DNA of 31,823 bases from Solirubrobacterales bacterium (GTDB taxonomy: Bacteria > Actinomycetota > Thermoleophilia > Solirubrobacterales > Solirubrobacteraceae). Shown in pieces: positions 676 to 31,698 of the stretch (position 1 is its first letter; every line of letters starts with the position of its first letter). The notes below the pieces were generated by a model that worked only from the letters and a program-made list of their open reading frames with translations, did no database searches and had not been told where the DNA came from. The position numbers and the translations under genes are program-made. The stretch covers positions 1 to 31,823 of the forward strand of contig JAOPZQ010000136.1 in NCBI GenBank assembly GCA_025964075.1, read 5' to 3'.

Positions 676-1500
676 ATGGACGCCGGTGCCTTCAGGGATT
701 CGTTCTCGCAGCCGATCGGCCCGGGGGCCGGCGCCTACGCGCCGCCTCCGTACCATTACCGCGGCGTGCAGGACATGCTCATCGCCTACGCCGCCGACCC
801 CGAGGGCGTCGCCGCGCTGCTGCCGCCGGGGGTCGAGGCGGCCGACGACGAGCCGGTCTGCATCGCCTGGGGGCGCTGGATCCCGTTCTCCTCCTTCGGC
901 CCCTACCACGAGGCCTACGTCATGGTCCGGGTGAACCTCGACGGCCAGACGTACCTGTACCAGCCGTTCATCTTCACCGACAACGAGATCCCGCTCGTGG
1001 CCGGGCGCGAGATCTGGGGCTTCGCCAAGAAGCTCGCGACGATGCAGCGCAGCTCGGGCGGCGGAACGGAGCCGTTCGGGGAGCAGATGCTCTTCACCGT
1101 CGAGCGCCCTCGGGGCCAGCGGATCATGACGATGTCGATGGCCTGCGACCGCACGGCGGACCCCGTGGAGATGGAGGACCTCCCGGTGCTCTCGACGCGC
1201 ATCATCCCGAGCGCCGAGGCGGGACGGCCGCCGTCGGTCGCCGAGCTCGTTCGCCTCGACGTCGCCGCGTCCCTGCACCACAGCGCGGACGGGACGCCGG
1301 AGCTCTTCACCGGGCGCGCCTCGGTGTCGATGGACGCCCGCTCGCCGGTCGACCCGTGGCACCTGCTGGCCCCCACTCGGATCCTGCAGGGCTGGTACGG
1401 CGTCTTCGACTTCGACCTCTTCCACGGGAAGGTCGTCCACGACTACCTCGCGGACGCCGAGATCTGGAAGGCGCCGGCCACCGTCGCGGGCGTCGCATGA
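676..1500 (+). CDS. acetoacetate decarboxylase-like (ADC superfamily) protein, 274 aa
   Basis: GAGGAG SD before ATG 676; Schiff-base lysine motif GREIWGFAKK; YHEA carries the conserved Glu; PPPYHYR N-terminal motif. Confidence 0.88.
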   Translation: MDAGAFRDSFSQPIGPGAGAYAPPPYHYRGVQDMLIAYAADPEGVAALLPPGVEAADDEPVCIAWGRWIPFSSFGPYHEAYVMVRVNLDGQTYLYQPFIFTDNEIPLVAGREIWGFAKKLATMQRSSGGGTEPFGEQMLFTVERPRGQRIMTMSMACDRTADPVEMEDLPVLSTRIIPSAEAGRPPSVAELVRLDVAASLHHSADGTPELFTGRASVSMDARSPVDPWHLLAPTRILQGWYGVFDFDLFHGKVVHDYLADAEIWKAPATVAGVA

Positions 1501-2513
1501 CTCGCGAGGACTCCAATCAGGCGAGCCCGGATGGCGCGCGGAGTCCGCTCACGAGCGCCGCGTTCCCCCCGGCGCGGCGGGTCGAGACGAACGGCATCGG
1601 CCTCGCCGTCCACGAGCTCGGCGACGGCCCGGCCGTCGTCCTGCTGCACGGGTTCCCCGAGCTCGCCTACTCGTGGCGCCGGCAGATCGGGCCGATCGCG
1701 GAAGCGGGGTTCCGGGTGATCGCCCCCGATCAGCGCGGCTTCGGGGACAGCGACGCGCCCGAGGACTCGCAGACGTACAGCGTGAAGACGCTCGTGTCCG
1801 ACCTCGTCGGCATGCTCGACGCGCTCGACATCGAGCGGGCGGTGTTCGTCGGCCACGACTGGGGCGGGATGCCGGCCTGGTACTCGGCGGTGTACGCGCC
1901 GGAGCGCGTGGCCGGAGCGGGCAGCCTCTGCACGCCGTTCTTCACACCCGGGGAGGTCGACCTCCTCGAGGCCTACGACGAGGTCCGCGGCCCGCAGCAC
2001 TACATGCGGACCTTCCAGGTGCCCGGCGTCGGCGAGGCCATGCTCGAGCGGGACGTGGAGGCCACGTTCCGCGCGCTGATCCGGGGTCGCGGCATGACGC
2101 TCGCGGAGTTCCGCGCCTCGCCTCCCGAGATCCAGGAGATCCGGGCGGGCGTGTTCGTCGGCGATCCCCAGATGTTCGGCGACGAGCTTCTCTCCGACGA
2201 GGAGCTGGCGGTCTACGTCGACACGTACCGCCGCACCGGGTTCACCGGCGGCCTCAACTGGTACCGCGCGCTCCACCAGGACTGGGAGGAGGGGCGGGGC
2301 CAGGAGATGAGGATCGAGACGCCGGCGATCATGATCTGTGCGGAGCACGACTTCTTCCTCCCTCCGGACTTCACCGACGGCATGGAAGAGCTGGTCCCCC
2401 GCGTCGAGAAGCACGTTGTCCCCGACTGCGGTCACTGGATCCAGCAGGAGCGCCCTGACGAGGTCAACGCGCTGCTCGTTCCCTGGCTCACGAAGCACTT
2501 CGCGCACGCCTAG
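1497..2513 (+). CDS. alpha/beta hydrolase, soluble epoxide hydrolase (EphA-like), 338 aa
   Basis: ATGA overlap with the upstream stop; HGFPE oxyanion motif, GHDWGG nucleophile Asp, HY and NWYR tyrosines, GHWIQQE catalytic His. Confidence 0.9.
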   Translation: MTREDSNQASPDGARSPLTSAAFPPARRVETNGIGLAVHELGDGPAVVLLHGFPELAYSWRRQIGPIAEAGFRVIAPDQRGFGDSDAPEDSQTYSVKTLVSDLVGMLDALDIERAVFVGHDWGGMPAWYSAVYAPERVAGAGSLCTPFFTPGEVDLLEAYDEVRGPQHYMRTFQVPGVGEAMLERDVEATFRALIRGRGMTLAEFRASPPEIQEIRAGVFVGDPQMFGDELLSDEELAVYVDTYRRTGFTGGLNWYRALHQDWEEGRGQEMRIETPAIMICAEHDFFLPPDFTDGMEELVPRVEKHVVPDCGHWIQQERPDEVNALLVPWLTKHFAHA

Positions 2514-2536
2514 CGTCGATTGGAGAGAAGACAACG

Positions 2537-3277
2537 ATGACCGCAGTCCTCGTCCACGGAAATCCCGACAGCCACCTGCTCTGGGAGCGCGTGCAGGAAG
2601 AGCTCGACGGCTCGCACCGGGTCGTCGCGCTCGACCTGCCGGGCTTCGCCGACCCGCCGCCGGCCGGCTTCGACGCGAGCAAGGAGTCCTACGTCGACTG
2701 GCTCGTCGCGGAGATCGAGCAGCTCGTCGAGGAGCATGGTCCGGTGGACCTCGTCGGCCACGACTGGGGCTCGCTGCTCGTCCAGCGCGTCGCCTCGACG
2801 CGGCCCGAGCTGCTGCGCTCGCTGACCGCCGGCGGGGCGGTCGTCGACGCCGACTACCCGTGGCACTCCATCGCTCAGGTCTGGCAGACGCCGGGCGAGG
2901 GTGAGCGGTACATGGCGGAGGAGCTGACGCCGGAGGTCTCCGTGCCGTACCTGGTCGAGAACGGCGTGCCCGAGGTGTACGCCGCGCGCAACGCGTGGCT
3001 CGTCCCCGGCAACAAGGACTGCATCCTCGCGCTCTACCGCTCGGCGGTGAGGGTGGGGGAGGAGTGGCAGCCGGACCTCGAGCGCGTCGGCGTGCCGAGC
3101 ATGGTCATCTGGGGCCGCGAGGATCCCTACGTCGAGCTCGAGTGGGGCGAGCGCCTCGCCCGGCGTCTGGGGGCGGAGCTGGTCGTCCTGGACTGCGCCC
3201 ACTGGTGGCCGTACGAGCGCCCCCGCGAGACCGCGGAGGCGCTCGAACGGCTGTGGGCGCGCGTCGCCGTCGGGTGA
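2537..3277 (+). CDS. alpha/beta fold hydrolase (epoxide hydrolase/dehalogenase-like), 246 aa
   Basis: HGNP, GHDWGS (Asp nucleophile), WGREDP, AHW motifs; GGAGAG SD. Confidence 0.88.
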   Translation: MTAVLVHGNPDSHLLWERVQEELDGSHRVVALDLPGFADPPPAGFDASKESYVDWLVAEIEQLVEEHGPVDLVGHDWGSLLVQRVASTRPELLRSLTAGGAVVDADYPWHSIAQVWQTPGEGERYMAEELTPEVSVPYLVENGVPEVYAARNAWLVPGNKDCILALYRSAVRVGEEWQPDLERVGVPSMVIWGREDPYVELEWGERLARRLGAELVVLDCAHWWPYERPRETAEALERLWARVAVG

Positions 3278-3283: not shown

Positions 3284-4558
3284 CTACAGATGCGCGGCGC
3301 CGAGCAGCGCGAGCATCGTGTTCTCGCCGTCGGCGATCTTGTACGACTTCGCGTCGCGCAGCAGCTTCTCCGGGCGGAAGCTCGTGCCGTCGGCGAACGT
3401 CACGCCGTCGCGCCGCGTGCCCCGGCCGCCGCACAGCTGGATCGCGGTGTCGGCGATCTCGAACGCCGCCTCGGTCGTGAACACCTTGGCGGCGCACGAG
3501 TGCTGGATCGAGCCGACCTCGTCCGCGTCCGAACGGCCGTAGTTGTACAGGTACACCGAGCGCGTCATCGCCCGGGCGGCCTCGAGCAGCTGGAACATCC
3601 GGAACAGCCGCAGGCGGACGGCCTGGTGCTCGTAGATGACCTTGCCGCCCTGGACCCGCTCCTTCGTCCACTTCAGGGCGCCCTCGTACGCCGCCCGGCC
3701 GGCGCCGAACGCGAGCAGCCCGGTGGACACGTTGGCCAGCGCGTGCGTGGCGTTGAGGACGTCGACGTAGGTCTCCGGGTCGGCGATCATGTAGTGCTTC
3801 GGCAGCCGCACGCCGTCGAAGATGATCTGGCCCTGCGGCAGCGCGCGGAGCCCGTGCTTGTCGAGCGGCTCGCCGCGCGAGATCCCCGGCAGGTCGAGCG
3901 GCACGATCGCCACGCCGCCCTTGTCGAGGCCCGAGCTGTCGATGTTGCAGAACAGCGTCGCGTGGGTCGCGATCACGCCGCTCGACACCCACCACGACTT
4001 CTGGCCGTCGAGCACCCATTCCTCGCCGTCGAGCCGGGCGCGGACCTGGCCGCCGGGGACCACGAGCTCGGCCGTGTGCGCCGCGAGCTGGTCCGAGCCG
4101 TGCGCCGGCTCGGTGATCGCCCAGCACCCGAACCAGTCCGTGCGCTCGCCGGAGAAGTACGGCTTCGAGAACTCCTCGATGAGCTCCGGGCTCCCGAGGT
4201 TGTAGGCGTACTGGTACGGGAACGGAGCGAGGAAGAGGACCGCGCCGAGGCCGGCGTCGCCCGTGGCGATCTCCTCGAAGATGAGGCATTCCTCGAGGCG
4301 CGAGAGCCCGAGGCCTCCGAGCTCGGTCGGCCCCGTGAGCTTCGTGAAGCCCTCGCGGTGCGCCGTGGCGATGAAGTCGAAGATGGGGGAGCCGGGGGCG
4401 ACCGCCTCCTCGGCGCTCATCTGGTCGAGGGCGTAGCCGGTGGGTCGCACGACGTCCTGGGCGAACTCGCGGGCGCGTCGCTGCCAGGCGCGAGCCTCCT
4501 CGGGGATGTCGACGTTCAACTCGAGGAACCCCGTGGGCTCCGTCTTGGTGACGCTCAA
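3284..4558 (-). CDS. acyl-CoA dehydrogenase family protein, 424 aa
   Basis: TTG start with AGGAG SD; WAITEPAHGSD, LDGQKSWWVS, QLCGGRG and KLLRDAK FAD-binding motifs. Confidence 0.9.
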   Translation of the reverse strand: MSVTKTEPTGFLELNVDIPEEARAWQRRAREFAQDVVRPTGYALDQMSAEEAVAPGSPIFDFIATAHREGFTKLTGPTELGGLGLSRLEECLIFEEIATGDAGLGAVLFLAPFPYQYAYNLGSPELIEEFSKPYFSGERTDWFGCWAITEPAHGSDQLAAHTAELVVPGGQVRARLDGEEWVLDGQKSWWVSSGVIATHATLFCNIDSSGLDKGGVAIVPLDLPGISRGEPLDKHGLRALPQGQIIFDGVRLPKHYMIADPETYVDVLNATHALANVSTGLLAFGAGRAAYEGALKWTKERVQGGKVIYEHQAVRLRLFRMFQLLEAARAMTRSVYLYNYGRSDADEVGSIQHSCAAKVFTTEAAFEIADTAIQLCGGRGTRRDGVTFADGTSFRPEKLLRDAKSYKIADGENTMLALLGAAHL

Positions 4559-4594: not shown

Positions 4595-4657
4595 ACGCTA
4601 GTCCGTGCCGTCCGGGGTCGTGAGGGCCGCGGCGGGCCGCCTTTGGAACTCCCACAG
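4595..4657 (-). promoter_or_regulatory. acyl-CoA dehydrogenase promoter: -10 TAGCGT (4595-4600) plus site TTGG-N7-ACAG (4643-4657)
   Basis: 42-bp spacing identical to the other promoters. Confidence 0.55.
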
Positions 4658-4667: not shown

Positions 4668-5702
4668 TCAGGCGTAGAAGGTCTCCGCGATCCCCTCGAG
4701 GTAGAACGCCAGCTGCTCGGGCGTCAGGCCGCCGATCGGAGGCACGAGGCAGAACGAGTCCGCCACGTCCCAGACCGTCTCCACCTGGCGGCGGCACGCG
4801 TCGGCGTTCCCGAGGACGACGTAGCGCTCCACCATCTCGTCCGTCACCGCCGCCGCGGCGGCGGCCATGTCCCGCCGCTCGACGCCCTGCTGGCAGGCGA
4901 GCGCTTCGGCCCGGAAGCCGTCGGCGGCGAACAGCTCCTCGTACTGCTTCATCCCCGCGTAGAACGCCACGGTCCCGCGGCAGTCCGCGATCGCCTGGCG
5001 CCTGTCGTCGTTCACCGCCACCCACAGCCACGCGTTCCAGTGGATGTCGGAGCGCTCGCGGCCCGCCCGGCCGAGGCCGCGCTCGAGCGCCGCCCGGCCG
5101 GGGCCGGCGATCCAGTGGACGCCGTGGATCGGGTGGTCCATGAAACCGTCGGCGATCTCCCCGGCGAGGCTGGTCAGGCGGGGCTGGTTCGCGGCCAGCC
5201 AGATCGGGATCCGCTCGCGCACCGGCGGTGCGAAGGGCCCCTGGAAGACGCCCCAGTCGTGCCGGTGGAACTCCCCCTCGTAGCGGTCGAGCTCGCCGGT
5301 GTGGCTCTTCGCGACGATGAGCCGGATGAGCTCGATCGTCTCGCGCATGTGCGCCACGGGCTGCCCGTAGTTCGGCTCGCCGAACAGTCCCTCGACCCAC
5401 GCGCGGATCGAGGTGCCGAGCCCGAGGACGAACCGGCCGCCGCAGACCCGGTCGAGGTCCATTGCCGTCATCGCGGTCTCGAACGGGCTCCGCGTGAAGG
5501 CGATCGCGATCCCGCTCGCGAGTTGCGGGCGCTCGGTGACGGCGGCGCAGTATCCGAGCCCCATGAACGGCGAGCTGTAGATCTGGGGGACGAAGATGCC
5601 GGCCAGGCCGGCCGCCTCGACCTGCCGCGCCTGAGCGGTCAGCACCTCGCCCGGGACGAGCGGGGGCAGGAACGCCCACTGCCGGCTGTTGTCGTTCCTC
5701 AC
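4668..5702 (-). CDS. LLM class (luciferase-like) probably F420-dependent oxidoreductase, 344 aa
   Basis: GTG 5702 overlapping the P450 stop, GGGAG SD; IAIAFTRSPFETAMTAMDLDRVCGGRFVLGLG resembles the TIGR03617/MSMEG_2256-type family; cofactor assignment is inferred. Confidence 0.85.
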   Translation of the reverse strand: MRNDNSRQWAFLPPLVPGEVLTAQARQVEAAGLAGIFVPQIYSSPFMGLGYCAAVTERPQLASGIAIAFTRSPFETAMTAMDLDRVCGGRFVLGLGTSIRAWVEGLFGEPNYGQPVAHMRETIELIRLIVAKSHTGELDRYEGEFHRHDWGVFQGPFAPPVRERIPIWLAANQPRLTSLAGEIADGFMDHPIHGVHWIAGPGRAALERGLGRAGRERSDIHWNAWLWVAVNDDRRQAIADCRGTVAFYAGMKQYEELFAADGFRAEALACQQGVERRDMAAAAAAVTDEMVERYVVLGNADACRRQVETVWDVADSFCLVPPIGGLTPEQLAFYLEGIAETFYA

Positions 5703-6976
5703 CGTGTGCTCCCTCTGGCGGTGCAGGTGGCGGAGTCCGCGGTGGCGTCCGGGAGGGCGACCACATGCTCCGCGTGGACGGGAAGCGCCGCGAGCGAGCG
5801 CGAGAGGAGCCGCGGCTTCCATCGCGGCGCTTCCGCCGAGAGGCGAAGCCCCCAGAGGCGCCTCATCGCGGACGGGATCGCGACCCGTCCGACCATGCGG
5901 GCGAGCGGGGCGCCGAGACAGTAATGCGGGCCGAGCCCGAACCCCAGGTGGGGATTGGGGTCCCGGCCGAGGTCGAGCTCGTCGGGGCGGTCGAAGGTCC
6001 GCGGGTCGCGGTTGGCCGCGGCGAGCACGAGCAGCACGCGCTCGCCCGCGCGGATGTGCTTGCCGCGCCACCAGTAGCTCTCGGCCGCGAAGCGGACGCT
6101 GACGCGCGCGGGCCCCTCGAAGCGCACGAGCTCCTCGACCGCCGTTCGCGCGAGCTGCGGCTCGGCCTCGAGCCTGGCCGCCTGCTCCGGGCTGCCGAGC
6201 AGCGAGAGGATGCCGTTGCCGAGTATGCCGGCGACGGCTTCCTGGCCCCCGCAGAGCAGGAGCGTGAGCATCGCGACGATCTCGTCGGGCGTGAGCGCGT
6301 CGCCCTCGACGGTCCGCGCCCGGCGCACCCGCCCGAGCAGGTCATCCGCATCCGCGGCTCCCGACTCGGCCGCGAGCCGCTCGACGTACGCCACGAGCTC
6401 GCCCGCTCCCTGGAGCGCGCGCTCGTCGATCGCGCCGCCGTCGGCGAGCTCGGACTCGACTGCCGAGAAGTCGTCGGCCCAGCGCCGCAGGTCGTCACGG
6501 TCCGAGGCGGGCAGGCCGAGCAGCTCGACGGCGATCATCGCGGGGAGCGCGCCGGCGAAGTCCGCGACGAGGTCGATCTCGGTTCGCTCCTCGAGGTCGT
6601 CGAGCAGTACGTTCGCGGCTCGCTCGACCTCGAAGGTCAGGCGCTCGCCGCCATCGGGAGGGAGCGCGTCGAGAACGAGGCTCCGCAGCCTGCGGTGCTC
6701 GGACCCGTCCGCCACCGTCATCCAGCCGGCGAGCGTCCCCGAGACCGCCGCCGCCGTCCCGGAAGCCACGCCCTGGGGCGGCTGGATCCCGCGATCGCTC
6801 GACAGGCGGCGGTCCAGGTGCGCCGCGACGCAGTCGTCGTAGCGGGTGATCAGCCAGGCGCCGTGCCGCGCGCTCCAGTGCACCGGGTCGCCCTCTCGGA
6901 GCTCGGCCAGGACCGAGTACGGGTCGGCCAGCGCGCCCGGGGCGAGCAGATCGATCTCCGGTTCCACGTCAGCCAC
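5699..6976 (-). CDS. cytochrome P450, 425 aa
   Basis: Heme motif FGLGPHYCLG, ExxR (EELVRF), LAAANRDP; I-helix GGQEAV lacks the usual Thr. Confidence 0.93.
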   Translation of the reverse strand: MADVEPEIDLLAPGALADPYSVLAELREGDPVHWSARHGAWLITRYDDCVAAHLDRRLSSDRGIQPPQGVASGTAAAVSGTLAGWMTVADGSEHRRLRSLVLDALPPDGGERLTFEVERAANVLLDDLEERTEIDLVADFAGALPAMIAVELLGLPASDRDDLRRWADDFSAVESELADGGAIDERALQGAGELVAYVERLAAESGAADADDLLGRVRRARTVEGDALTPDEIVAMLTLLLCGGQEAVAGILGNGILSLLGSPEQAARLEAEPQLARTAVEELVRFEGPARVSVRFAAESYWWRGKHIRAGERVLLVLAAANRDPRTFDRPDELDLGRDPNPHLGFGLGPHYCLGAPLARMVGRVAIPSAMRRLWGLRLSAEAPRWKPRLLSRSLAALPVHAEHVVALPDATADSATCTARGSTR

Positions 6977-7079: not shown

Positions 7080-7724
7080 TCAGGGCTTCGTCGCTGGGGC
7101 GTCGAACCCCCGAACGATGAAGTCCCAGAAGAGGAACGCGATGTCGCGTGGCCGCCGGGGACCGTCCGGCTTGTACCACTGGTAGGACCAGTTGACCATC
7201 CCGAACGCGGCGAAGGTCGCCATCTTCACGTCGAGATCGCGGAACTCCCCCGAGTCCACGCACTCCTGGATCGCCGAACGAAGATGGGCCTGGATGACCG
7301 CCCGCTTCTGGCTGATGCGCTCCTGTTGCTCGGGGCCGAGCTCTCGATGGTGCTCCCAGAACGCGCGGACGTGACCGCGGTGACTGTCGACGACCTCGAG
7401 CACGTCTCCCATCGACTCGAGCAAGCGCTGCCGGCCGGTCATCGGCGTGTCCGCGCGCGACTCGATGCGGGCGAGCATCTCGTCGGCGAACGTCTCGTGG
7501 ATCCAGAACAGGAGGTCCTGCTTGCTCTTGACATAGTGGTAGAGCGTCGACTTCTGGATGCCCGCCGCGGCCGCGATGTCCGCCACGCTCGTCTGGTGGT
7601 AGCCGTGCGTGTCGAACAGCTCCGCCGCGTGCCGGACGAGGTCCGATCGCTTGACGTCGGCGGCCGACCGACCGTCCGGTGGAACACGGGTGTCCGAGCT
7701 CGCGCCACGCATGGGATCGAACAT
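7080..7724 (-). CDS. TetR/AcrR family repressor, KstR2-like C-terminal domain, about 214 aa
   Basis: HTH AAELFDTHGYHQTSVADIAAAAGIQKSTLYHYVKSK; C-terminal GMVNWSYQWYKPDGP typical of KstR2/PaaR-type repressors; start could also be 7712. Confidence 0.9.
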   Translation of the reverse strand: MFDPMRGASSDTRVPPDGRSAADVKRSDLVRHAAELFDTHGYHQTSVADIAAAAGIQKSTLYHYVKSKQDLLFWIHETFADEMLARIESRADTPMTGRQRLLESMGDVLEVVDSHRGHVRAFWEHHRELGPEQQERISQKRAVIQAHLRSAIQECVDSGEFRDLDVKMATFAAFGMVNWSYQWYKPDGPRRPRDIAFLFWDFIVRGFDAPATKP

Positions 7725-7968: not shown

Positions 7969-8886
7969 TCAGCTGTCTGTCTGCCCGGCCGGCGGAGCGA
8001 GGGTTCTGCCGAGCCAGCGCCAGAACGCGCGAGCGGGCCCGCGTGGCGCGGGCCGGGCGCGGCGCACGGCCCGTAGCGAGCGGCGCAGATCGACTCCGGA
8101 GACCGGTATCGCGGCCAACGTGCCGGCGGCGATCTCACTGGCAACGACGCGCTCGGAGAGCAGCGTGAAGCCGCCGCCGAGGACCGCGCGCTTGAGGGCC
8201 TCGGCGCTTGAGACCTCCAGTGCCGGGTGCAGCTCGACGCCGGCGTCGGCGAGCATGGCGGTCGCCACGGCGCGTGTGCCCGAGCCCGCCTCGCGTGCCA
8301 GGAAAGGTTCGCCGGTCAGCGCCTCGAGCGCGACGGCGCGACGGCGCGCCCAGGGATGGGTGCTCGGCACGACGACGCGGATCTCGTCGTGGGCGACGAC
8401 GAGCTCTCGCAGCCCGTGCATGGCGGCTGGTCCTTCGATGAAGCCGATCTCGGCCGCGCCGTCGCGCACGGCGTGCACGACCTCCTCGGAGTTGGTGATC
8501 GTGGCGGACACACGGCACGGCGGCGCGGCCGCGCGAAACGACGCGAGCCACTCGGGCAGGAGCGTCACGCCGATCGTGCGGCTGGCGTGGATGAGGAGCA
8601 GCGGTGCGTGGTCCGGTGAGCTCAGCGCGGCTTCGGCGCGCTCGAGCACGGCGAGGGCCTCACGGGCCAGCGGGTAGAGCACGCAGCCGGACGCGGTCGG
8701 GCGCAGGCCGTGTGCGCCGCGTTCGAGCAGCGCCCGACCGACCCGTCGTTCGAGCGCCTGCAGGCGCTTGGTCGCGGCGGACTGCGTGAGCTGCAGCGCG
8801 TCGGCGGCACCCTGCACCGTGCCGGTCTCCACGGCGGTCACGAAGGCCGCCAGGTCCCGGCCGGGCAGCGGGTCCGCGAGGGACAT
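7969..8886 (-). CDS. LysR family transcriptional regulator (CysL/YeiE-like), 305 aa
   Basis: HTH TVQGAADALQLTQSAATKRLQALE; REAGSGTR motif in the substrate-binding domain. Confidence 0.9.
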   Translation of the reverse strand: MSLADPLPGRDLAAFVTAVETGTVQGAADALQLTQSAATKRLQALERRVGRALLERGAHGLRPTASGCVLYPLAREALAVLERAEAALSSPDHAPLLLIHASRTIGVTLLPEWLASFRAAAPPCRVSATITNSEEVVHAVRDGAAEIGFIEGPAAMHGLRELVVAHDEIRVVVPSTHPWARRRAVALEALTGEPFLAREAGSGTRAVATAMLADAGVELHPALEVSSAEALKRAVLGGGFTLLSERVVASEIAAGTLAAIPVSGVDLRRSLRAVRRARPAPRGPARAFWRWLGRTLAPPAGQTDS

Positions 8887-8900
8887 TCCAAAGCGGAATG
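8884..8900. promoter_or_regulatory. LysR recognition box CATTCC-N5-GGAATG (T-N11-A) overlapping the lysR start codon
   Basis: Perfect 6-bp arms fitting the T-N11-A rule. Confidence 0.6.
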
Positions 8901-8962
8901 TTATGCCCCGAGGACGACTGGCGCGAGCCCGACGGAGGATGGACGATCGACATGCAACCGAT

Positions 8963-8976: not shown

Positions 8977-8993
8977 CGAAAGTCAGAGCAGAC

Positions 8994-24787: not shown

Positions 24788-25516
24788 TCAGCGGGAGTCG
24801 TCGAGGAGCGCCGGGTGGCCGCGCAGGCTGAGGCCGCCGTCGACGGTCAGGCACGTCCCGGTGATCCAGCGTGCGGCGGGGGAGGCGAGGAACGCGACGG
24901 CGGCCGCGATGTCCGCGCCCTCGGCGATGCGGCCGAGCGGCGTGCCGTCGACGAAGGACTCGGACACGCCCGGTTGCGCGAGCATCGGCTCCATCAGCGG
25001 CGTGCGCACGACGCCCGGCGCGACGGCGTTGCAGCGGATGCCGCGCGAGCCGAGCTCGAGGGCGGCGGAGCGGACGAGCGCCTCGAGGCCCGCCTTCGCC
25101 GCGCAGTAGTGCGTCAGGCCGGCGACGGGGGAGCGCGAGTCGATCGACGAGAGCAGGGTCACGGACCCCTCGCCCGCCAGCGCGCGAGCGCAGGACTGAA
25201 CGACGTTGAAGGCGCCGGTGAGGTTGACGGCGAGGACGAGCTCCCACTCGCGCGCCGTGATGTCGGCGAGGGGCGTCACGCGGGCGGTCCCCGCGGCGTA
25301 GACCACGGTCCACGGCGAGCCGCAATGCGTGGCGAAGTCCTCGACCGCGGCGCGCACGGCCTCGGCGTCGCGCACGTCGAGGGGCAGGGAGGCGACGTCG
25401 GACGGTGGGCGCAGGTCGGCGACGACGACGCGCCAACCCCGGGCGGCCAGCTCGTCGGCGGTCGCGCGTCCGATGCCGGAGGCGCCGCCGACCACGAGCG
25501 CCCCGGCGGCCGGCAT
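24788..25516 (-). CDS. short-chain dehydrogenase/reductase (SDR), about 242 aa
   Basis: GGASGIG, S...YCAAK, NAVAPG, DGG; TGATG coupling to the E2 stop (alternative GTG 25528). Confidence 0.9.
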   Translation of the reverse strand: MPAAGALVVGGASGIGRATADELAARGWRVVVADLRPPSDVASLPLDVRDAEAVRAAVEDFATHCGSPWTVVYAAGTARVTPLADITAREWELVLAVNLTGAFNVVQSCARALAGEGSVTLLSSIDSRSPVAGLTHYCAAKAGLEALVRSAALELGSRGIRCNAVAPGVVRTPLMEPMLAQPGVSESFVDGTPLGRIAEGADIAAAVAFLASPAARWITGTCLTVDGGLSLRGHPALLDDSR

Positions 25517-26517
25517 CACGTCCGCCACGACATGCCTCCCTCGAGCAGCTCGGCGAGCTCGGTGAGCGCCCGCCCGCCGACCGCCCCGTCGATGGCGCGG
25601 TGGTCGAGCGTCATCGTGACCGTGAGCATCGGGACCGCGACGCTCCCCTGCTCGCGCGGGACGAGGCGCTCGACCGTCCGCCCGACCGCGACGATCGCGC
25701 TCTCGCCCGGGTTGACCATCGCGGTGAACCGATCGACGCCGAAGCTCCCGAGATTCGAGAGGCTGATGGTCCCGTCCGCCATGTCCTCGAGCCCGAGGTC
25801 ACCCGCGCGCGCGCTCGCGACCAGGCGCGCGCGCTCGCGCGCGACGGCCGCGAGCGTGAGCTCGTGCGCGTCGCGGATCACCGGGACGACGAGGCCGCGG
25901 TCGGTCGCCACCGCGAGCCCGACGTTCACCCCGGCCCGGCGCGCGAGCCGCGGCGGATCGTCGCCGTCGCCGGGGACGAACGACGTGGCGAGCGCGGGAT
26001 GGCGCACCACCGTCTCCGCGAGCGCCTGGACGAGCATGTCGCCCAAGCCGGGGGCGCCGTCGAGTCGCGCGAGCTCGGCCTTGGCGGCGAGCAGCCACGT
26101 CGCATCGACGTCACGCGCGAGCGCGTACTGCGGGATCGCCTGGCTGATGGTCATGCGCCGCGCGATCGCTCGGCGCAGCGGCGAGAGCTCCTCGAGCGCC
26201 GCCGGCTCGGGCGCGCGCGCGGCTCCGACTCGCGCGCCGGGTGACTTCGGATCGGACTCGCCCTCGAGCGGCTCGTCGAGCGAGTCCGCGAGGAGGACGA
26301 GCGTGGCGCCGACCTCGACCGTCTCGCCGATCGCAACCTCGATGCGGCGCACGAAGCCGTCGCGGGGTGCGACCACATCGGTGTCCGCCTTGTCCGTCGA
26401 GAGCTCGACGACAGGGTCGTCCTTGACGACCTGCACGCCGACCTCGACCGGCAGCGCGACCACCACACCTTCCGTCACCTCCAGGCCGAGCTGCGGCATG
26501 ACGACCGCGGTGACCAA
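25516..26517 (-). CDS. dihydrolipoamide acyltransferase E2 (lipoyl plus catalytic domain; no recognisable subunit-binding domain), 333 aa
   Basis: TTG start with AGGAGG SD; MPQLG...STDKA lipoyl-Lys; SLSNLG and DHRAIDG catalytic motifs. Confidence 0.9.
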   Translation of the reverse strand: MVTAVVMPQLGLEVTEGVVVALPVEVGVQVVKDDPVVELSTDKADTDVVAPRDGFVRRIEVAIGETVEVGATLVLLADSLDEPLEGESDPKSPGARVGAARAPEPAALEELSPLRRAIARRMTISQAIPQYALARDVDATWLLAAKAELARLDGAPGLGDMLVQALAETVVRHPALATSFVPGDGDDPPRLARRAGVNVGLAVATDRGLVVPVIRDAHELTLAAVARERARLVASARAGDLGLEDMADGTISLSNLGSFGVDRFTAMVNPGESAIVAVGRTVERLVPREQGSVAVPMLTVTMTLDHRAIDGAVGGRALTELAELLEGGMSWRT

Positions 26518-26549: not shown

Positions 26550-26660
26550 ACGCTATGAGCCGGCTTCGCGGTCACCTATCTCGATGTCGGTCGCCCCTTG
26601 TTGCTTCTCCAACTCACCCGCTCCGGCGCACCGAGGGGCCGGATCGCGCGGCGCGAGAAT
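26550..26660. promoter_or_regulatory. bidirectional promoter: central TTGT-N7-CCAA (26598-26612) with -10 TAGCGT (minus, 26550-26555) and GAGAAT (plus, 26655-26660)
   Basis: Both hexamers are exactly 42 bp from the palindrome. Confidence 0.65.
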
Positions 26661-26667
26661 CCGGTTC

Positions 26668-27666
26668 ATGTCCCACCCGGATCCTTCGGGGGCGCCGGTC
26701 GTCGACCCGGCGGCTTCGGCGCCCCTGGAGTCGCTGTTCGCCTCGATGGCCCTGATCCGCGCGTTCGAGACTCGCGTCGCCGAGCTCTACCGCGACGGCG
26801 AGATCCCCGGGTTCGTGCACACGTCGCTGGGACAGGAGGCGGTGGCGGCCGGCGTCGGCCTCGCGCTGCGGCCCGACGACTACCTCGCGACGACGCATCG
26901 CGGGCACGGGCACTGCCTCGCGAAGGGCGTCGACGTCGACGGCATGATGGCCGAGCTGTTCGCGAAGGCGACCGGGCTCTGCCGCGGCAAGGGCGGCTCG
27001 ATGCACGTCGCCGATCCCCGGCTCGGCGTCCTCGGGGCGAACGCGATCGTCGGGGCGAGCATGCCGCTCGCCGTCGGGGCCGGCCTGTCGAGCAAGCTAC
27101 GGCGCCAGGACCGCGTCGCCGTCGCCTTCTTCGGCGAGGGCGCCGTCAACCAGGGGATGTTCCACGAGGCCATGAACCTCGCCGCCATCTGGGATGCCCC
27201 GGTGGTGTTCGTGTGCGAGAACAACGTCTACGCCGAGTTCACCGACAGCCGCACGATGAGCCGCGTGCCGCGGGTCGCCGACCGAGCAGCGGCCTACGGA
27301 ATCGCGGCGTCGACGGTCGACGGCAACGACGTCGAGGCGGTTCACGCGGCGGCGCAGGAGGCCGTCGAGCGGTGCCGCGTGGCCCGTGGCCCGTTCCTGC
27401 TCGAGGCGGAGACCTATCGCTCGCACGGCCACTACGAGGGCGACGCGCAGCCCTACAAGCCGGCCGAGGAGTCCGACGCGTGGGGGGCGCTCGACCCGCT
27501 GAGCATCGCCGAGGGCCGACTCCTCGAGCGGGGCGCGGGGTCGGCCCAGCGGCTCGCTGCCGTTCGTTCGCGCGCGCGGGAGCGGGTCGAGGCCGCCGTC
27601 GAACGCGCCCGCGCGGCCCCGCCACCGGCGCCGGAGGAGGCGTACGAGCATGTCTTCCACGGCTGA
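26668..27666 (+). CDS. acoA: TPP-dependent dehydrogenase E1 alpha, acetoin dehydrogenase-like, 332 aa
   Basis: GEIPGFVHTSLGQEA, HRGHGH, GEGA...ENN TPP motif, GHYEGD; substrate not proven. Confidence 0.85.
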   Translation: MSHPDPSGAPVVDPAASAPLESLFASMALIRAFETRVAELYRDGEIPGFVHTSLGQEAVAAGVGLALRPDDYLATTHRGHGHCLAKGVDVDGMMAELFAKATGLCRGKGGSMHVADPRLGVLGANAIVGASMPLAVGAGLSSKLRRQDRVAVAFFGEGAVNQGMFHEAMNLAAIWDAPVVFVCENNVYAEFTDSRTMSRVPRVADRAAAYGIAASTVDGNDVEAVHAAAQEAVERCRVARGPFLLEAETYRSHGHYEGDAQPYKPAEESDAWGALDPLSIAEGRLLERGAGSAQRLAAVRSRARERVEAAVERARAAPPPAPEEAYEHVFHG

Positions 27667-28630
27667 GCGGGCGCCGCGGTACATCGACGCGATCAACCAG
27701 GCGCTGGCCGAGGCCATGGCCGAGGACGACACGGTCGTCGTCATCGGCATCGACGTGGGCGCCGGCGAGGGCATCTTCCGGGTGACGCGCGGGTTGTTCG
27801 AGCGGTTCGGTCCGGAGCGCGTGATCGACACGCCGATCAGCGAGATGGGCTACGTCGGCGCCGCGGTCGGCGCCGCCATGACCGGGTTGCGACCGATCGT
27901 CGAGATCATGTTCATGGACTTCCTCGGCGTGTGCCTGGATCCGATCATGAACCAGGCCGCCAAGCTCCCCTACATGACGGCCGGCGCCCTCTCGGTCCCG
28001 ATCGTCTTCCGCACCCAGACCGGCGCCGGGCGCAGCGCGGGCGCCCAGCACTCGCAGAGCCTCGAGGCGATGCTCGCCCATGTCCCCGGCCTCAAGGTGG
28101 TGATGCCGGCGACCGTCACCGACGCCCACGACCTCCTCCTCGCCGCCGTCCGCGACCCCGACCCCGTCGTCTACGTCGAGAACCGGCGGCTCTACGCGAC
28201 GCGCGCGCGCCTCGATCGGGATCCGCTCCCACTCGGCGTCGCCCGCGTCGCGGCGGTAGGGGAGGACGTCACCGTCGTCACGTGGGGTCAGTCGCTGCGG
28301 GAGTGCCTGACCGCGGCCGAGGGCGGGAGCCCGTCGCTCGAGGTCGTGGACCTCAGGTCGCTCGTGCCCCTCGACATGGAGACCGTCCTCGCGTCGGTGC
28401 GCAAGACGGGCCGCCTGCTGGTCGTGCACGAAGCCGTCCAGGACTTCGGCGCCGGAGCCGAAATCGCGGCTCGCGTCGCCGACGAGCTGTTCGACGACCT
28501 CCGCGCGCCGGTCCGCCGCCTGGGAGCGCCGGCCGTGCCGATGCCGTTCAGCCCGGACCTCGAACGGGCGCTGCTCCCGTCGGCCGTGGCGATCGCGGCC
28601 GTCGCCGAGAAGCTCACGCGCGAGAGTTAG
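27650..28630 (+). CDS. acoB: TPP-dependent dehydrogenase E1 beta, acetoin dehydrogenase-like, 326 aa
   Basis: DTPISEMG, EIMFMDF, AQHSQS, EVVDLRSL motifs; overlaps the alpha stop. Confidence 0.85.
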   Translation: MSSTAERAPRYIDAINQALAEAMAEDDTVVVIGIDVGAGEGIFRVTRGLFERFGPERVIDTPISEMGYVGAAVGAAMTGLRPIVEIMFMDFLGVCLDPIMNQAAKLPYMTAGALSVPIVFRTQTGAGRSAGAQHSQSLEAMLAHVPGLKVVMPATVTDAHDLLLAAVRDPDPVVYVENRRLYATRARLDRDPLPLGVARVAAVGEDVTVVTWGQSLRECLTAAEGGSPSLEVVDLRSLVPLDMETVLASVRKTGRLLVVHEAVQDFGAGAEIAARVADELFDDLRAPVRRLGAPAVPMPFSPDLERALLPSAVAIAAVAEKLTRES

Positions 28631-29849
28631 CAGCCCGCGACGCCGCCCGGAGTCCGGCGACGACGCCACGGTCGTGGAGGTCGCCGATCTCGGCGGGGCT
28701 GAGGTTCAGGACCTCGGCGAGGATCTCCTCGGTGTGCTCGCCGAGCTGCGGGGCGCGCTGGACGGGGACGCGGCCGTGCTGGGCGAAGTCGAGGGGCGAG
28801 CGGGGTGCGAGGTAGCGGCCGACGCCGGGGTGCTCGATCTCCTCGAACATCGGGTTGGCGACGGAGCAGCGGGGGTCCTCCTCGACGAGCTGGCGGAACG
28901 TCTGGTAGGGGCCCCAGGACACGCTGGTGCCGGCGAACGCCTCGCGGATCTCGGCGAGGGTCCGCGACTCGAACCAGGGGCGCAGGATCGCGGCGATCAG
29001 GTCGCGGGCCTCGTAGCGGCCGGTCTCCGTGTCGAGATCGTGGCCCGTCGCGCTCTCGATGCCGGCGTAGGCGTCGCCCGTGCCGGTGGCCTCGACGAGC
29101 GCGCGCCATTGCCGGGCGGTCAGGGCGACGACCATCACGCGGCGGTCGTCCGCGGTGACGAAGTCGTGGCCGAAGGCGCCGTAGAGGTAGTTGCCGTCCT
29201 TGCGCTGGTCGCGACCGCCGAGCTGGGCCTCGGCGATGCGGCCGAGGTTCCCGACCATCGCGAACGCGACGTCGGAGAGGGCGACCCGGACCAGCTCGCC
29301 GCGCCCGGTGCGGCCGCGCTGACGCTCGGCGGCGAGGAGCCCGACGGCCGCGAGCGTCCCCATCGCGACGTCCCAGGCGGGCAGGACGCTGTTCAGCGGC
29401 TCGGCGAGGTTGCGCGGCCCGGTCGCCCACGGGAACCCGGTGGCGGGGTTGACCGTGTAGTCGACCTCGCTCGTGCCATCGGGATTGCCGGCGAGCGCGA
29501 CCATGATCAGGTCCTCGCGGCGGGCGCGCAGCTGCTCGTAGGAGAGCCAGCCGCGCGCGGGGAAGTTCGTGAGCAGCGCGCCCGTAGCCTCGACGAGCGC
29601 GGTCACGAGCTCGCGCCCTTCGGTCGATCGGATGTCGACCTGGATCGAGCGCTTGCCCTTGTTGAGGCCCGCCCAGAACAGGCTCTGCCCATCGGCGGCG
29701 AGCGGCCAGCGCTGATGGTCGAGACCGCCGCCGATCTGGTCGAAGCGGATCACGTCGGCCCCGAGCTGCGCGAGCGTCATGCCGCCGAGCGGCGCCGCGA
29801 CGAACGCGGAGCCCTCGACGACGCGCAGTCCTTCGAGGATCCCGTTCAT
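28614..29849 (-). CDS. mct: mesaconyl-CoA C1-C4 CoA transferase (2-methylfumaryl-CoA isomerase), family III CoA transferase, 411 aa
   Basis: GLRVVEGSAFVAAPLGGMTLAQLGADVIRFD, SLFWAGLNKGKRS, SEVDYTVN, VLPAWD, GNYLYGAFG closely match Chloroflexus Mct as I recall it. Confidence 0.88.
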   Translation of the reverse strand: MNGILEGLRVVEGSAFVAAPLGGMTLAQLGADVIRFDQIGGGLDHQRWPLAADGQSLFWAGLNKGKRSIQVDIRSTEGRELVTALVEATGALLTNFPARGWLSYEQLRARREDLIMVALAGNPDGTSEVDYTVNPATGFPWATGPRNLAEPLNSVLPAWDVAMGTLAAVGLLAAERQRGRTGRGELVRVALSDVAFAMVGNLGRIAEAQLGGRDQRKDGNYLYGAFGHDFVTADDRRVMVVALTARQWRALVEATGTGDAYAGIESATGHDLDTETGRYEARDLIAAILRPWFESRTLAEIREAFAGTSVSWGPYQTFRQLVEEDPRCSVANPMFEEIEHPGVGRYLAPRSPLDFAQHGRVPVQRAPQLGEHTEEILAEVLNLSPAEIGDLHDRGVVAGLRAASRAANSRA

Positions 29850-30835
29850 GCCATCACCGCCACGAGGCGCCAGTCCAGCACGGGCTCCGCCGCGCGGGTC
29901 TCGACCCGCAGCTGGACGAGCGCGCCCGGCCCGCTCGACGTGACGGCTTCCACGGTCACGACGCTGCGCAGCACGTCGCCTTCGGCGACCGGCGCGAGGT
30001 GATCGCACGAGCGCCATCCGGCGACCGTGACCAGGTTCGGCAGCGCGCGCGTGGCATGCGCGAGGGCGACGCCGATCGTGTGGCCCCCGTAGACGAGGCG
30101 CTGCCCGCGCGCGCCCGGGTCGGTGTGGGCGGCGGCGACGTTGAGCGTGAGGCGCGCCAGCTCCGGGGCGGCGGTCACCGTGTCGCCGCCCTCGACGACG
30201 TAGCGGCCGCCGACGCTCACCCCGTCCGCGTGGAGTCCGGGAACGAGCTCGCGGAACGCGTCGAGGTCCCAGCTCGCGACGAGGTCGCCCAGCGCGCCGG
30301 CGGGCAGCTCGGCCGGGATCGCATCGAGGTCGTCGGCATGGCCGGGGCGGTTGGCCTCCTCGCGCAGCGGCAACATCGCGCAGCGGTGGAAATCCAGGAC
30401 CGGACGATCCTCCTGGTCGACGGTGCGGATCCGCAGCACGGCGAGCCCCGTCGGCGCGCGACCGGGCTTGGGCGAGGTGTCGCGCAGCGCGACGACCTCC
30501 GTGACCGTGCGCAGCGTGTCGCCGATCCGCGGCGCCCGGCGCAGGACCAGCCCGCGATAGAAGAGGTTCGCGATCACGCGCTGCGTAGCGACCGTCGACT
30601 GGCCGATCGCGACGTCGCACACGAGCCCCGGATGGGCGAGCGCCCGCTCGCCGGTGACTCGCGCGCACAGATGGGCGTCGAGCGGCAGGCGCAGCCGATC
30701 GCCGAGGATCGCCTGGTGCAGCGCCGCGTGGCCGTCGGTGAGCGTGAGCCCGGGCGCCACGTCGAAGCGGTGGCCGACCTCCAGGTCCTCGTACCAGGGA
30801 CCGGCGACCGGCTGCTCGCGCTCGAGGACCGTCAT
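29846..30835 (-). CDS. tandem MaoC/hot-dog acyl-CoA dehydratase (Mch-like), 329 aa
   Basis: GPWYEDLEVG, ANLFYRGL, GDTL first hot-dog; GGHTIG, GDVLRS second; ATGA-coupled to mct. Confidence 0.8.
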   Translation of the reverse strand: MTVLEREQPVAGPWYEDLEVGHRFDVAPGLTLTDGHAALHQAILGDRLRLPLDAHLCARVTGERALAHPGLVCDVAIGQSTVATQRVIANLFYRGLVLRRAPRIGDTLRTVTEVVALRDTSPKPGRAPTGLAVLRIRTVDQEDRPVLDFHRCAMLPLREEANRPGHADDLDAIPAELPAGALGDLVASWDLDAFRELVPGLHADGVSVGGRYVVEGGDTVTAAPELARLTLNVAAAHTDPGARGQRLVYGGHTIGVALAHATRALPNLVTVAGWRSCDHLAPVAEGDVLRSVVTVEAVTSSGPGALVQLRVETRAAEPVLDWRLVAVMA

Positions 30836-31698
30836 CCGGCCCTCGCCACGGTTCGCAGCGCGGCAAGCCGCACCGGCTCGTCGAGCATCTCGCCGTCGAG
30901 GCGGACCGCGCCACGGCCGTCGGCCGCGGCGTCCGCGAGGGCGGCGAGCACCGCGCGCGCATACTCGACCTCCTCCGGCGTGGGCGTGAACGCGGCCGTG
31001 ATCGGCGCGATCTGCGAGGGGTGGATCGCCCACTTCCCGTCGAAGCCGAGCTCCGCCGCGCGGGCCGCCGCGGCGCGAAGCCCCTCCTCGTCGTCGATCG
31101 CCAGATGCGGCCCGTCGATCGCCTGCACCCCGGCGGCGCGAGCCGCGGACAGCACCGCGTCCTGCACGGCCAGCCACCGATCCAGTGGCGCGGACCGCGA
31201 ACGCCCCAGCGAGACGGCGAGGTCGGCATAGCCGAGGACGATCGCCTCCAGCCGCGGCGAGCCGGCGGCGATCTCGTCCAGCGCCCGGAGCCCGGCGGCC
31301 GACTCCACGAGCGCCTGGACGCCGAGCGGCTCGGCGTGGCCCGCGGCGCGCTCGACGCCGTCGAGCAGCCGGTCGACGAACGCGAGGTCGCCGGCGCTCT
31401 CGACCTTCGGGATGACGACGCTCCGCGGCCGGCTCCCGGCGCCGCCGAGCGCAATCACGTCCTCGTGCGCCCACGGCGTCCCGGGCGCGTTGACCCGGAC
31501 CGACGCGACGCTCCCGCCGGCGAGCGCCGCCAGCGCCTCCGCGCGCGCCTCAGCCTTCCGCGCGGGCACGACCCCGTCCTCGAGGTCGATCACCACTTCG
31601 TCGACCTCGATGCTCCGCGCCTTCTCGAGCATCCGCGGCGAGCTCGCCGGCACGGTCAGGGCCGCACGACGCGGCTGGTCGAGAAGGCGCGGAGGCAT
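30832..31698 (-). CDS. CitE/HpcH-type CoA ester lyase (malyl-/methylmalyl-/citramalyl-CoA lyase-like), 288 aa
   Basis: LTVPAS, IDLEDG, VRVN, IPKVE, LVESAAG, LGYADL, GKWAIHPSQI. Confidence 0.88.
   Translation of the reverse strand: MPPRLLDQPRRAALTVPASSPRMLEKARSIEVDEVVIDLEDGVVPARKAEARAEALAALAGGSVASVRVNAPGTPWAHEDVIALGGAGSRPRSVVIPKVESAGDLAFVDRLLDGVERAAGHAEPLGVQALVESAAGLRALDEIAAGSPRLEAIVLGYADLAVSLGRSRSAPLDRWLAVQDAVLSAARAAGVQAIDGPHLAIDDEEGLRAAAARAAELGFDGKWAIHPSQIAPITAAFTPTPEEVEYARAVLAALADAAADGRGAVRLDGEMLDEPVRLAALRTVARAG

Follow-up and report, generated by a model that had tools for sequence, protein, structure and literature searches.

A mosaic contig of a soil Solirubrobacterales bacterium carries a conserved Thermoleophilia gene cluster that may degrade small oxygenated compounds

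Introduction

Thermoleophilia and their order Solirubrobacterales are among the most abundant and least understood Actinomycetota of soil. In this work, we analysed a stretch of 31,823 bases (hereafter the window) that makes up all of contig C510 in a soil metagenome-assembled genome (MAG) from a Solirubrobacterales bacterium; this MAG, at 76% completeness, has 691 contigs that total 3.98 Mb, and the G+C content of the window is 72%. The window encodes, among others, an epoxide hydrolase (EH), alcohol dehydrogenases, a thiamine pyrophosphate (TPP)-dependent E1 with a lipoylated E2, two enzymes of the acetoacetate decarboxylase (ADC) family, a P450 and a CitE-MaoC-Mct trio, which raises the question of whether these genes serve one catabolic route, as had been proposed from the sequence in an earlier reading of the same DNA (hereafter the original prediction). 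The comparisons described below show that the window is a mosaic, about half of whose genes are members of a cluster conserved in Thermoleophilia. We lean towards the view that this core is a compact, rearranged copy of a conserved supercluster that would degrade small neutral oxygenates, namely epoxides, vicinal diols, acyloins and ketones. No description of the cluster was found in the searchable literature.

A conserved core in the window

Synteny was anchored on the second ADC-family enzyme of the window, ADC2, because its family is tight and widely distributed (595 homologues at E≤1e-10, the best 120 of them at 59-94% identity), and all window proteins were mapped onto 80 loci from species-representative genomes. 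Thirteen genes of the window remain linked, as orthologues of 42-82% identity, in genomes of Thermoleophilia/Solirubrobacterales: those encoding a solute-binding lipoprotein (PBP6), ADC1, EH, a second alpha/beta hydrolase (ABH2), an SCP2 thiolase, ADC2, a GAF-PucR regulator, a Zn-dependent alcohol dehydrogenase (Zn-ADH), an M20 hydrolase homologue, a short-chain dehydrogenase/reductase (SDR), E2, E1a and E1b. About 30 of the 80 loci share the order thiolase-like-PucR-M20-SDR-E2<>E1a-E1b-FCD regulator-ADC2-SCP2 thiolase, followed by ABC-PBP6-DUF3237-(ADC1) and then by a pyruvate carboxylase (PYC)-type carboxyltransferase (CT), a biotin carboxylase (BC) and a biotin carboxyl carrier protein (BCCP). 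The orthologues are closest for E1b (72-82% identity to the window), SCP2 thiolase (68-74%), M20 (66-77%) and E1a (65-78%), followed by ADC1 (56-82%), SDR (52-68%) and E2 (43-68%), while those of GAF-PucR (43-51%) occur in 27 of the 80 loci. The SCP2 thiolase gene lies elsewhere directly downstream of ADC2, and Zn-ADH homologues (42-47%) adjoin ABH2 in the superclusters described below.

Genes were called from third-position G+C and named with Pfam and NCBIfam, and every family named in the original prediction was recovered at the place given to it. The core genes, together with those in operon with the core thiolase gene, are as follows.

2-469, reverse strand: PBP6, solute-binding lipoprotein of the Peripla_BP_6 family (Pfam), 5' part; core
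676-1500, forward strand: ADC1, Schiff-base enzyme of the ADC family (PF06314); core
1497-2513, forward strand: EH, epoxide hydrolase of the soluble epoxide hydrolase (sEH)/EphA type, catalytic residues complete; extended core
2537-3277, forward strand: ABH2, second alpha/beta hydrolase, Asp nucleophile; extended core
15643-16842, reverse strand: SCP2/SCPx-type thiolase (Pfam); core
16849-18396, reverse strand: acyl-CoA ligase; operonic with the core thiolase
18404-18712, reverse strand: 102-aa protein of no family; operonic with the core thiolase
18709-19530, reverse strand: nitroreductase-family protein; operonic with the core thiolase
19698-20489, forward strand: ADC2, second ADC-family enzyme (PF06314); core, synteny anchor
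20507-22396, forward strand: GAF-GGDEF_2-PucR-type regulator (GAF-PucR); core
22465-23550, forward strand: Zn-ADH, Zn-dependent medium-chain alcohol/polyol dehydrogenase; probably core
23537-24763, reverse strand: M20 homologue; core
24788-25528, reverse strand: SDR; core
25516-26517, reverse strand: E2, lipoyl and catalytic domain; core
26584-27666, forward strand: E1a, TPP-dependent E1 alpha, AcoA-like; core
27650-28630, forward strand: E1b, TPP-dependent E1 beta, AcoB-like; core

The PBP6 fragment at the left end carries a signal peptide with an LSAC lipobox. The right end of another contig of the MAG, C507 (locus L138), holds PBP6 residues ~190-431 and ABC permease/ATPase genes, whereas the window holds residues ~60-167; the split of this one protein over both contigs indicates that they abut with a gap of ~70 nt. 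Beyond the transporter on C507 lies an unrelated SLT/M23 cell-wall hydrolase, which marks the border of the cluster. The adjacency of PBP6 and ADC1 is conserved across loci; as to the class of ligand, the orthologous PBP6 has no relative in the PDB at E≤1e-5. A few gene junctions of the window are bridged by sub-kb, low-depth contigs from three soil DNA runs, one example being 28332-28686 across E1b/Mct.

The Thermoleophilia supercluster

In six genomes, checked over stretches of 60-80 kb, the conserved genes form a supercluster of 45-55 kb (loci L116-L134 in G041, G042, G045, G046, G048 and G050; further supercluster loci are L114 and L057). Its order is BCCP-BC-PYC CT-DUF3237-PBP6-ABC-thiolase-ADC2-FCD-E1b-E1a<>E2-SDR-M20-PucR, then thiolase-like-ligase-SDR-ABH2-...-PPDK_N/phosphoenolpyruvate (PEP)-utilizer proteins-ligase-second PYC CT and, after this, enone reductase-PucR<>HydA-HydB-Acetone_carb_G-SDR-EH. 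Of 16 supercluster genomes, 14 have an orthologue of EH (57-74%), which in 12 or 13 of them shares a contig with ADC2 at a distance of 20-51 kb. Orthologues of ABH2 (49-73%) were found in all six superclusters and adjoin EH in locus L115 and in an 87%-identical relative. The supercluster combines the Aco-like complex and the ADC pair with three distinct ATP-dependent systems of the carboxylase/kinase-like kind. One is HydA/HydB/Acetone_carb_G, another is BC-BCCP with a PYC-type CT, and the third comprises PPDK_N/PEP-utilizer proteins, a protein of ~517 aa that belongs to no family and a second PYC-type CT; the window contains none of them. The nearest relatives of ADC2 (69-73%) share operons with HydA-HydB-Acetone_carb_G, a PYC-type CT and an enone reductase that resembles curcumin reductase. 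The HydA/HydB/Acetone_carb_G proteins of the superclusters score 388 bits against the acetophenone carboxylase gamma-subunit model, far under its cut-off.

The arrangement of the genes varies among loci. L115 reads SDR-EH|ABH2 ... BC, PYC CT|ADC1|PBP6, with EH and ABH2 at most 7 kb from ADC1/PBP6; L135 reads PYC CT-ADC2-SDR|NTR|SDR|ABC-PBP6-DUF3237|ADC1; another contig carries HydA-HydB-gamma-DUF3237-ADC2-enone reductase, and L023 shows yet another arrangement. In the window, core genes that are 20-50 kb apart elsewhere stand close together, and the stop codon of ADC1 overlaps the start of EH by 4 nt, an arrangement of translational coupling. That the genes stay close while their order changes between the window, L023, L115, L135 and Solirubrobacterales speaks for functional linkage over mere inheritance. 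This bears directly on the possibility that the window is just a loose assortment of scavenging enzymes that share no pathway, and whose synteny would simply be gene order inherited within one order. The many regulators and transcription units of the window, its unrelated 8-kb insert, the predominance of Solirubrobacterales among the supercluster genomes and the lack of ADC2 in the 40 nearest relatives of the MAG are all compatible with such a collection. However, the same families recur in different orders and operons in the window, L023, L115, L135, Aeromicrobium and Alphaproteobacteria, and this recurrence, together with the union of otherwise distant core genes and the coupling of ADC1 to EH in the window, leads us to give this explanation very little credit.

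ADC2 was not found in any of the 40 nearest GTDB relatives of the MAG (same family and order), and G021 is the sole one of them with M20-E2<>E1a-E1b (62-78% identity). Despite this absence, Solirubrobacterales proteins match those of the core at 60-82% identity, and the patchy distribution of the core suggests horizontal transfer or repeated loss. Farther away, Alphaproteobacteria and Aeromicrobium wangtongii have ADC2 next to ADC1, accompanied by a CoA ligase and an ABC transporter of the same type, and in Gammaproteobacteria ADC2 stands alone.

With regard to these distant loci, the minimal unit of Alphaproteobacteria and Aeromicrobium (L028, L031-L050, L025) reads CoA ligase-517-aa protein without Pfam family-246-aa PEP-utilizer-domain protein-SurE-PBP6/ABC-ADC2-ADC1-CMD-family protein, and its pair of 517-aa and PEP-utilizer proteins is also found in the Thermoleophilia supercluster. 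In the gammaproteobacterial loci L026 and L027, a 61%-identical ADC2 lies beside a TetR, a 385-aa unfamilied protein and an APH-type kinase, with the other cluster genes absent.

Enzymes of the core

The first hydrolase (1497-2513) is, by class, a genuine epoxide hydrolase of the sEH/EphA type, for which epoxide hydrolysis is predicted. It scores 251 bits against human sEH and 214 bits against mycobacterial EphA. Its oxyanion motif HGFP(E) and nucleophile motif GHDWGG align with human sEH (Asp335 position), both ring-opening tyrosines are kept (..HYM.., Tyr383; LNWYR, Tyr466 of human sEH), and so is the charge relay (AEHDF, Asp496 position; DCGHW, His524 position). ABH2, with an Asp nucleophile in GHDWGS, is nearest to fluoroacetate and haloalkane dehalogenases. 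Candidates for the oxidation of a diol are the SDR within the E2 operon and Zn-ADH, which lies 2 kb away and is 35% identical to an annotated 2,3-butanediol dehydrogenase (BDH) of Paracoccus; neither reaches an equivalog cut-off.

Among proteins in the PDB, E1a is most similar to mitochondrial-type pyruvate dehydrogenase (PDH) E1a (194 bits), with branched-chain keto-acid dehydrogenase (BCKDH) behind it (~147 bits). Among annotated plasmid genes, its best matches are the E1a of acoX-acoA-acoB-acoC-SDR-BDH clusters (47-55%, 239-270 bits), and it scores lower with genes annotated as pdhA (170-200 bits) and with bkdA1 (119 bits). In the opposite direction, the best match of Paracoccus AcoA in the MAG is the window E1a, by a narrow margin (255 vs 252 bits). 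It is therefore reasonable to regard E1a/E1b as acetoin-dehydrogenase-like (AcoA/AcoB-like), an assignment drawn from similarity and automated annotations; the original prediction had named the E1 in the same way, and its nearest relatives are indeed AcoA/AcoB of canonical acetoin clusters, with pdhA/bkdA further away. A housekeeping role of E1/E2 as PDH or BCKDH was also considered and was rejected in view of the four other E1a paralogues in the MAG, one set of which (E1a-E1b-E2) is located on contig C292; the complex of the window is hence an additional, specialised one.

No gene is linked to E2/E1 more tightly than that of the M20 homologue. Enzymes of the ArgE/DapE type use a Glu as general base, which in the M20 homologue is replaced by Gly (motif FMSDCDGEDG). 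Decay of the gene in this MAG was considered as the cause and rejected, since D-G-E is kept in all 12 orthologues checked and is hence a family trait.

An alternative is that the core degrades an amino-acid-derived or N-acylated compound, imported by an ABC transporter of the leucine-isoleucine-valine (LIV) type and deacylated by M20, with E1/E2 as a specialised 2-oxo-acid dehydrogenase. The ADC-fold proteins would then be pyruvate aldolase-dehydratases like Sbi00515 and MppR, and the PYC-type and PEP-utilizer proteins would handle pyruvate. In its favour, M20-E2<>E1a-E1b is the tightest sub-module and the sole part kept in G021, a transporter of the Peripla_BP_6/LIV type is found alongside in every case, E2 belongs to the classical 2-oxoacid_dh type and E1b is above the NCBIfam cut-off of the PDH E1-beta subfamily. 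Moreover, the PYC-type carboxyltransferases and the PEP-utilizer proteins come from families of pyruvate enzymes, and ADC1 matches both Sbi00515 and MppR. Against this, no version of the cluster contains an aminotransferase or deaminase, M20 is without its general-base Glu, E1a is nearer to AcoA of bona fide aco clusters than to pdhA/bkdA, both ADC proteins are nearer to true ADCs than to Sbi00515 or MppR, and EH, the enone reductase and the acetone/acetophenone-carboxylase-like genes would have no role. We consider an amino-acid-derived or 2-oxo-acid substrate unlikely, although it is the strongest of the competing explanations.

Both ADC-fold proteins belong to PF06314 (158 bits for ADC1, 144 bits for ADC2) and keep the Schiff-base Lys-Lys pair, GFAKK in ADC1 and GEPKK in ADC2 aligning with GFPKK of the Chromobacterium violaceum ADC. 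ADC2 keeps K111-K112 and R21 (the Arg29 equivalent), K111 being invariant in 21 homologues, and ADC1 has a His at the position aligned to the carboxylate-binding Arg. With 67.9 and 54.5 bits, respectively, both are under the cut-off of 150 of the NCBIfam ADC subfamily NF002614. They share the fold domain and the ExxGxPKK lysine pair with the ADC superfamily; in contrast, they are only ~25-35% identical to its solved members, and they form a conserved pair of distinct paralogues beside transporters and carboxylase-like enzymes. To our knowledge, this context has not been described for any characterised member, and we know of little on the physiological roles of the superfamily outside solventogenesis. 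The loci analysed here thus define a new genomic context for ADC-superfamily proteins.

The SCP2 thiolase comprises Thiolase_N and Thiolase_C_1 and scores 235 bits with the SCP2-thiolase type-1 (6hsj) and 198 bits with BbsB. Its operon (nitroreductase, 102-aa protein, ligase and thiolase) is closed by gaps of -4, 7 and 6 nt. The ligase, the 102-aa protein and the nitroreductase have no orthologues in the other clusters, where other ligases and nitroreductases occupy similar places. The conserved neighbours at other loci, namely ketone-carboxylase-like enzymes, an enone reductase, ligases and thiolases, suggest that the exit of the route is beta-keto-acid/ketone chemistry, by ligase and thiolase, and not mesaconyl-CoA.

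Proposed function of the core

In the AcoABC logic, a diol is converted to an acyloin, which is cleaved to acyl-CoA and aldehyde. Since E1a/E1b are nearest to AcoA/AcoB, a sequence from epoxide to diol to acyloin and on to E1/E2 cleavage is plausible for the core. Following uptake, presumably by the PBP6/ABC transporter, EH, whose enzyme class is clear, would open an epoxide to a vicinal diol; Zn-ADH and/or SDR may oxidise the diol to an acyloin; and the AcoAB-like TPP E1 and the lipoyl E2 would, judging from homology and context, cleave it to acyl-CoA and aldehyde. ADC1/ADC2 might act on beta-keto acids or beta-hydroxy-ketones, yielding ketones by decarboxylation or retro-aldol cleavage, and the CoA ligase with the SCP2 thiolase could activate and cleave beta-keto acids. 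In full-size clusters, ATP-dependent carboxylase-like enzymes would re-functionalise the ketones.

A number of observations weigh against this proposal. The E1 assignment depends on similarity and automated annotations, and all chemical steps beyond the assignment of enzyme classes are inferred. The window E2 shows an in-frame loss (residues ~76-108) of the peripheral subunit-binding domain (block RRAAPxARRxAxxxGxxLxxVxGTGPxGRIT), kept by 14 of 14 aligned orthologues; its lipoyl domain and catalytic DHRxxDG motif are intact, and the loss may be an assembly artefact. E3, AcoX and AcoR-type genes are absent from the window. M20 has no role in an acyloin route; both it and the LIV-type binding protein would agree better with a substrate derived from amino acids. 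Some of the synteny is due to common descent, given that most supercluster genomes come from one order. A search of the MAG revealed no PYC-type carboxyltransferase, no PEP-utilizer/517-aa pair and no orthologous acetone-carboxylase-like genes, but only paralogues at ≤35% identity, a result that at 76% completeness does not prove absence. Finally, a true beta-keto-acid decarboxylase beside ketone carboxylases would create a futile cycle, which leads us to favour, tentatively, a lyase role of the ADC-fold pair (retro-aldol cleavage or hydration of beta-hydroxy-ketones and enones) or the conversion of another beta-keto acid.

Comparison with known systems

From its gene content, the core would work like an acetoin/butanediol cluster fused to a methyl-ketone pathway with an epoxide-hydrolase entry, and it appears to be a member of no described system. 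Plasmid 1 of Paracoccus denitrificans PD1222 carries acoX-E1a-E1b-AcoC-SDR-CMD-2,3-butanediol dehydrogenase-sigma54 regulator. The window resembles this acetoin/2,3-butanediol cluster in its heteromeric TPP E1a/E1b (47% identical), lipoylated E2, adjacent SDR and Zn-dependent diol dehydrogenase. It differs in having a GAF-PucR regulator instead of sigma-54 AcoR, in the lack of AcoX and E3, and in its E2, which has a classical acyltransferase domain and no subunit-binding domain, unlike the alpha/beta-hydrolase-type AcoC. Furthermore, aco clusters contain no counterparts of M20, the ADC-fold enzymes, the SCP2 thiolase and the LIV-type transporter, which accompany the core in every case.

Methyl-ketone pathways lead from an alcohol to a ketone, a beta-keto acid and a beta-ketoacyl-CoA, which is thiolysed. 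The superclusters resemble the ketone-carboxylase versions of such pathways (acetone carboxylase; acetophenone carboxylase with benzoylacetate-CoA ligase and thiolase) in combining SDR/ADH, HydA/HydB/Acetone_carb_G, CoA ligases and thiolases. However, carboxylase genes were found neither in the window nor in the 76%-complete MAG, and the ADC-fold proteins, the PYC-type biotin carboxylase and the PEP-utilizer module of the supercluster are foreign to the known pathways. As for the entry, glutathione-independent routes for alkene epoxides exist, such as the epoxide hydrolase route for isobutylene in mycobacteria. They share with the window an alpha/beta-fold EH that gives a vicinal diol for oxidation by dehydrogenases, but the window EH is of the sEH/EphA type (its match to PDB 9c2g is distant, E 1e-26), no alkene monooxygenase is linked to it, and E1/E2 and ADC stand downstream in place of a 2-hydroxyisobutyryl-CoA mutase.

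It is tempting to go one step further and to see in the supercluster a network that assimilates volatile ketones, enones, acyloins and epoxides, with the ADC pair working alongside the three carboxylase/kinase-like systems and the AcoAB-like complex. Acetone, butanone, methyl vinyl ketone, acetoin and small alkene oxides would be candidate substrates, and the ADC-fold enzymes might serve as retro-aldol/hydratase lyases or as enamine-forming partners in carboxylation. We put this forward as a speculation that is rather unlikely to hold as a whole. Were it true, abundant and barely cultured soil Actinomycetota would constitute a dedicated sink for trace organic volatiles. For the degradation of small oxygenates in general, the conserved set of 45-55 kb offers a testable handle on the diet of Thermoleophilia, which possibly includes volatile ketones, diols and epoxides.

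Units outside the core

The remaining features of the window are the following.

3284-4558, reverse strand: ACAD, acyl-CoA dehydrogenase; weak or occasional member
4668-5702, reverse strand: LLM, F420-type luciferase-like oxidoreductase; outside the conserved set
5699-6976, reverse strand: P450; outside the conserved set
7080-7724, reverse strand: TetR; outside the conserved set
7969-15288, no strand given: intervening block of 8 kb with no link to the cluster
28614-29849, reverse strand: Mct-like family III CoA-transferase; independent module
29846-30835, reverse strand: tandem MaoC hydratase; independent module
30832-31698, reverse strand: CitE/Mcl-like lyase; independent module

Besides the enzymes considered in the original prediction, the operons of the window thus also contain LLM, the M20 homologue, the nitroreductase and the 102-aa protein.

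The TetR-P450-LLM genes, with ACAD, adjoin ADC1-EH-ABH2 elsewhere only in the 87%-identical relative; they were not found in the 80 ADC2 loci or in the six superclusters, and a 55% homologue of the P450 lies in an unrelated context. TetR-P450-LLM is a lineage-specific neighbour with its own repressor, outside the route. A few loci of Thermoleophilaceae have an ACAD homologue (43-46%) placed between ADC2 and the FCD regulator, and ACAD may be an occasional member of the cluster. The block 7969-15288 encodes a LysR, a small unfamilied protein, a LuxR-type response regulator with a histidine kinase, a second TetR, a metallophosphoesterase and two further unfamilied proteins, and has no orthologues in any related locus (80 loci and six superclusters).

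The Mct, MaoC and CitE genes form an overlapping operon that converges on E1b. The trio is conserved as a unit in 10 of the 40 relatives of the MAG, all 10 without ADC2 and without an orthologous E1, whereas Mct is present in only three of 16 core-carrying genomes, always on another contig, and is absent from two complete chromosomes. Mct-MaoC-CitE is an independent C5-dicarboxyl-CoA/glyoxylate module, so its place beside E1b is no evidence of a shared route. The Mct-like protein scores 555 bits against TIGR04253 (equivalog cut-off 725) and the tandem MaoC 23 bits against MC_hydratase (cut-off 26.5); an HpcH/CitE lyase is present, and no Meh was found in the window. With its Mct-like CoA-transferase, tandem MaoC and CitE/HpcH-type lyase in one overlapping operon, the module resembles Mcl-Mch-Mct-Meh of the 3-hydroxypropionate bi-cycle; it differs in the Mct score below the equivalog cut-off, the lack of Meh, a host that looks heterotrophic and its independence from the rest of the window.

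These results bear on the single route of the original prediction, in which a methyl-branched or isoprenoid-like compound would be epoxidised by the P450, pass through EH, ADH/SDR, AcoABC-like cleavage and ligase/ACAD/thiolase, and enter CitE-MaoC-Mct as a methyl-branched C5-CoA. The middle of this route, from EH to diol and acyloin and on to E1/E2 cleavage, is plausible and backed by conserved linkage; the entry through the P450 and the C5-CoA exit found no support, as synteny across genomes linked the genes of the core with each other but neither the P450 operon nor the Mct trio with them. A single route could draw on the confinement of all genes to 31 kb, on the nature of EH as a genuine epoxide hydrolase and of E1 as Aco-like, on TetR-P450-LLM-ACAD abutting ADC1-EH-ABH2 in the window and in the 87%-identical relative, and on the relative G011, where a paralogous E1a-E1b-MaoC-E2 set is co-directional with CitE-MaoC-Mct, so that a link between E1/E2 and the trio is conceivable. 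Yet P450 and LLM are missing from all other versions of the cluster, the trio occurs where ADC2 and the orthologous E1 do not and lies apart from the core where both are present, the G011 E1/E2 are paralogues of merely 35-45% identity, and the window has neither a Meh-type hydratase nor an enzyme joining the products of acyloin cleavage to mesaconyl-CoA. A methyl-branched C5-CoA endpoint therefore finds no support in the distribution of the trio, and the single route as a whole appears highly improbable. For annotation, telling the members of the conserved unit apart from the P450 operon and the Mct trio curbs the spread of an over-extended pathway.

The locus of G011 itself (L002:1-9941) holds ten genes on one strand: an MR/MLE enolase-superfamily protein, a family III CoA-transferase, E1a, E1b, a single MaoC, an SDR frame, the E2 catalytic domain, CitE, a tandem MaoC and an Mct that is 81% identical to that of the window. 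Its paralogous E1/E2 genes appear to be operonic with the Mct trio.

Regulation

Co-regulation of the set, as had been assumed in the original prediction, finds no confirmation in the organisation of the window, in which at least seven regulators, the unrelated 8-kb block and at least six transcription units (judged from short gaps and 4-nt overlaps) were counted. The regulators include TetR, LysR, the two-component pair, the second TetR and GAF-PucR. A search for shared operators over the intergenic regions gave no convincing motif common to all promoters. The motif TTGGn4-5CCCACAG lies upstream of ACAD (4643-4657, forward strand) and of P450 (7042-7056, reverse strand); as the pattern was derived from these two sites, an estimate of its chance occurrence is circular. 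A similar palindrome, CTTGGAAAACACCCAAG, lies upstream of ADC1 at about 555-575, and this palindrome and the two TTGGn4-5CCCACAG sites may be operators of the adjacent TetR.

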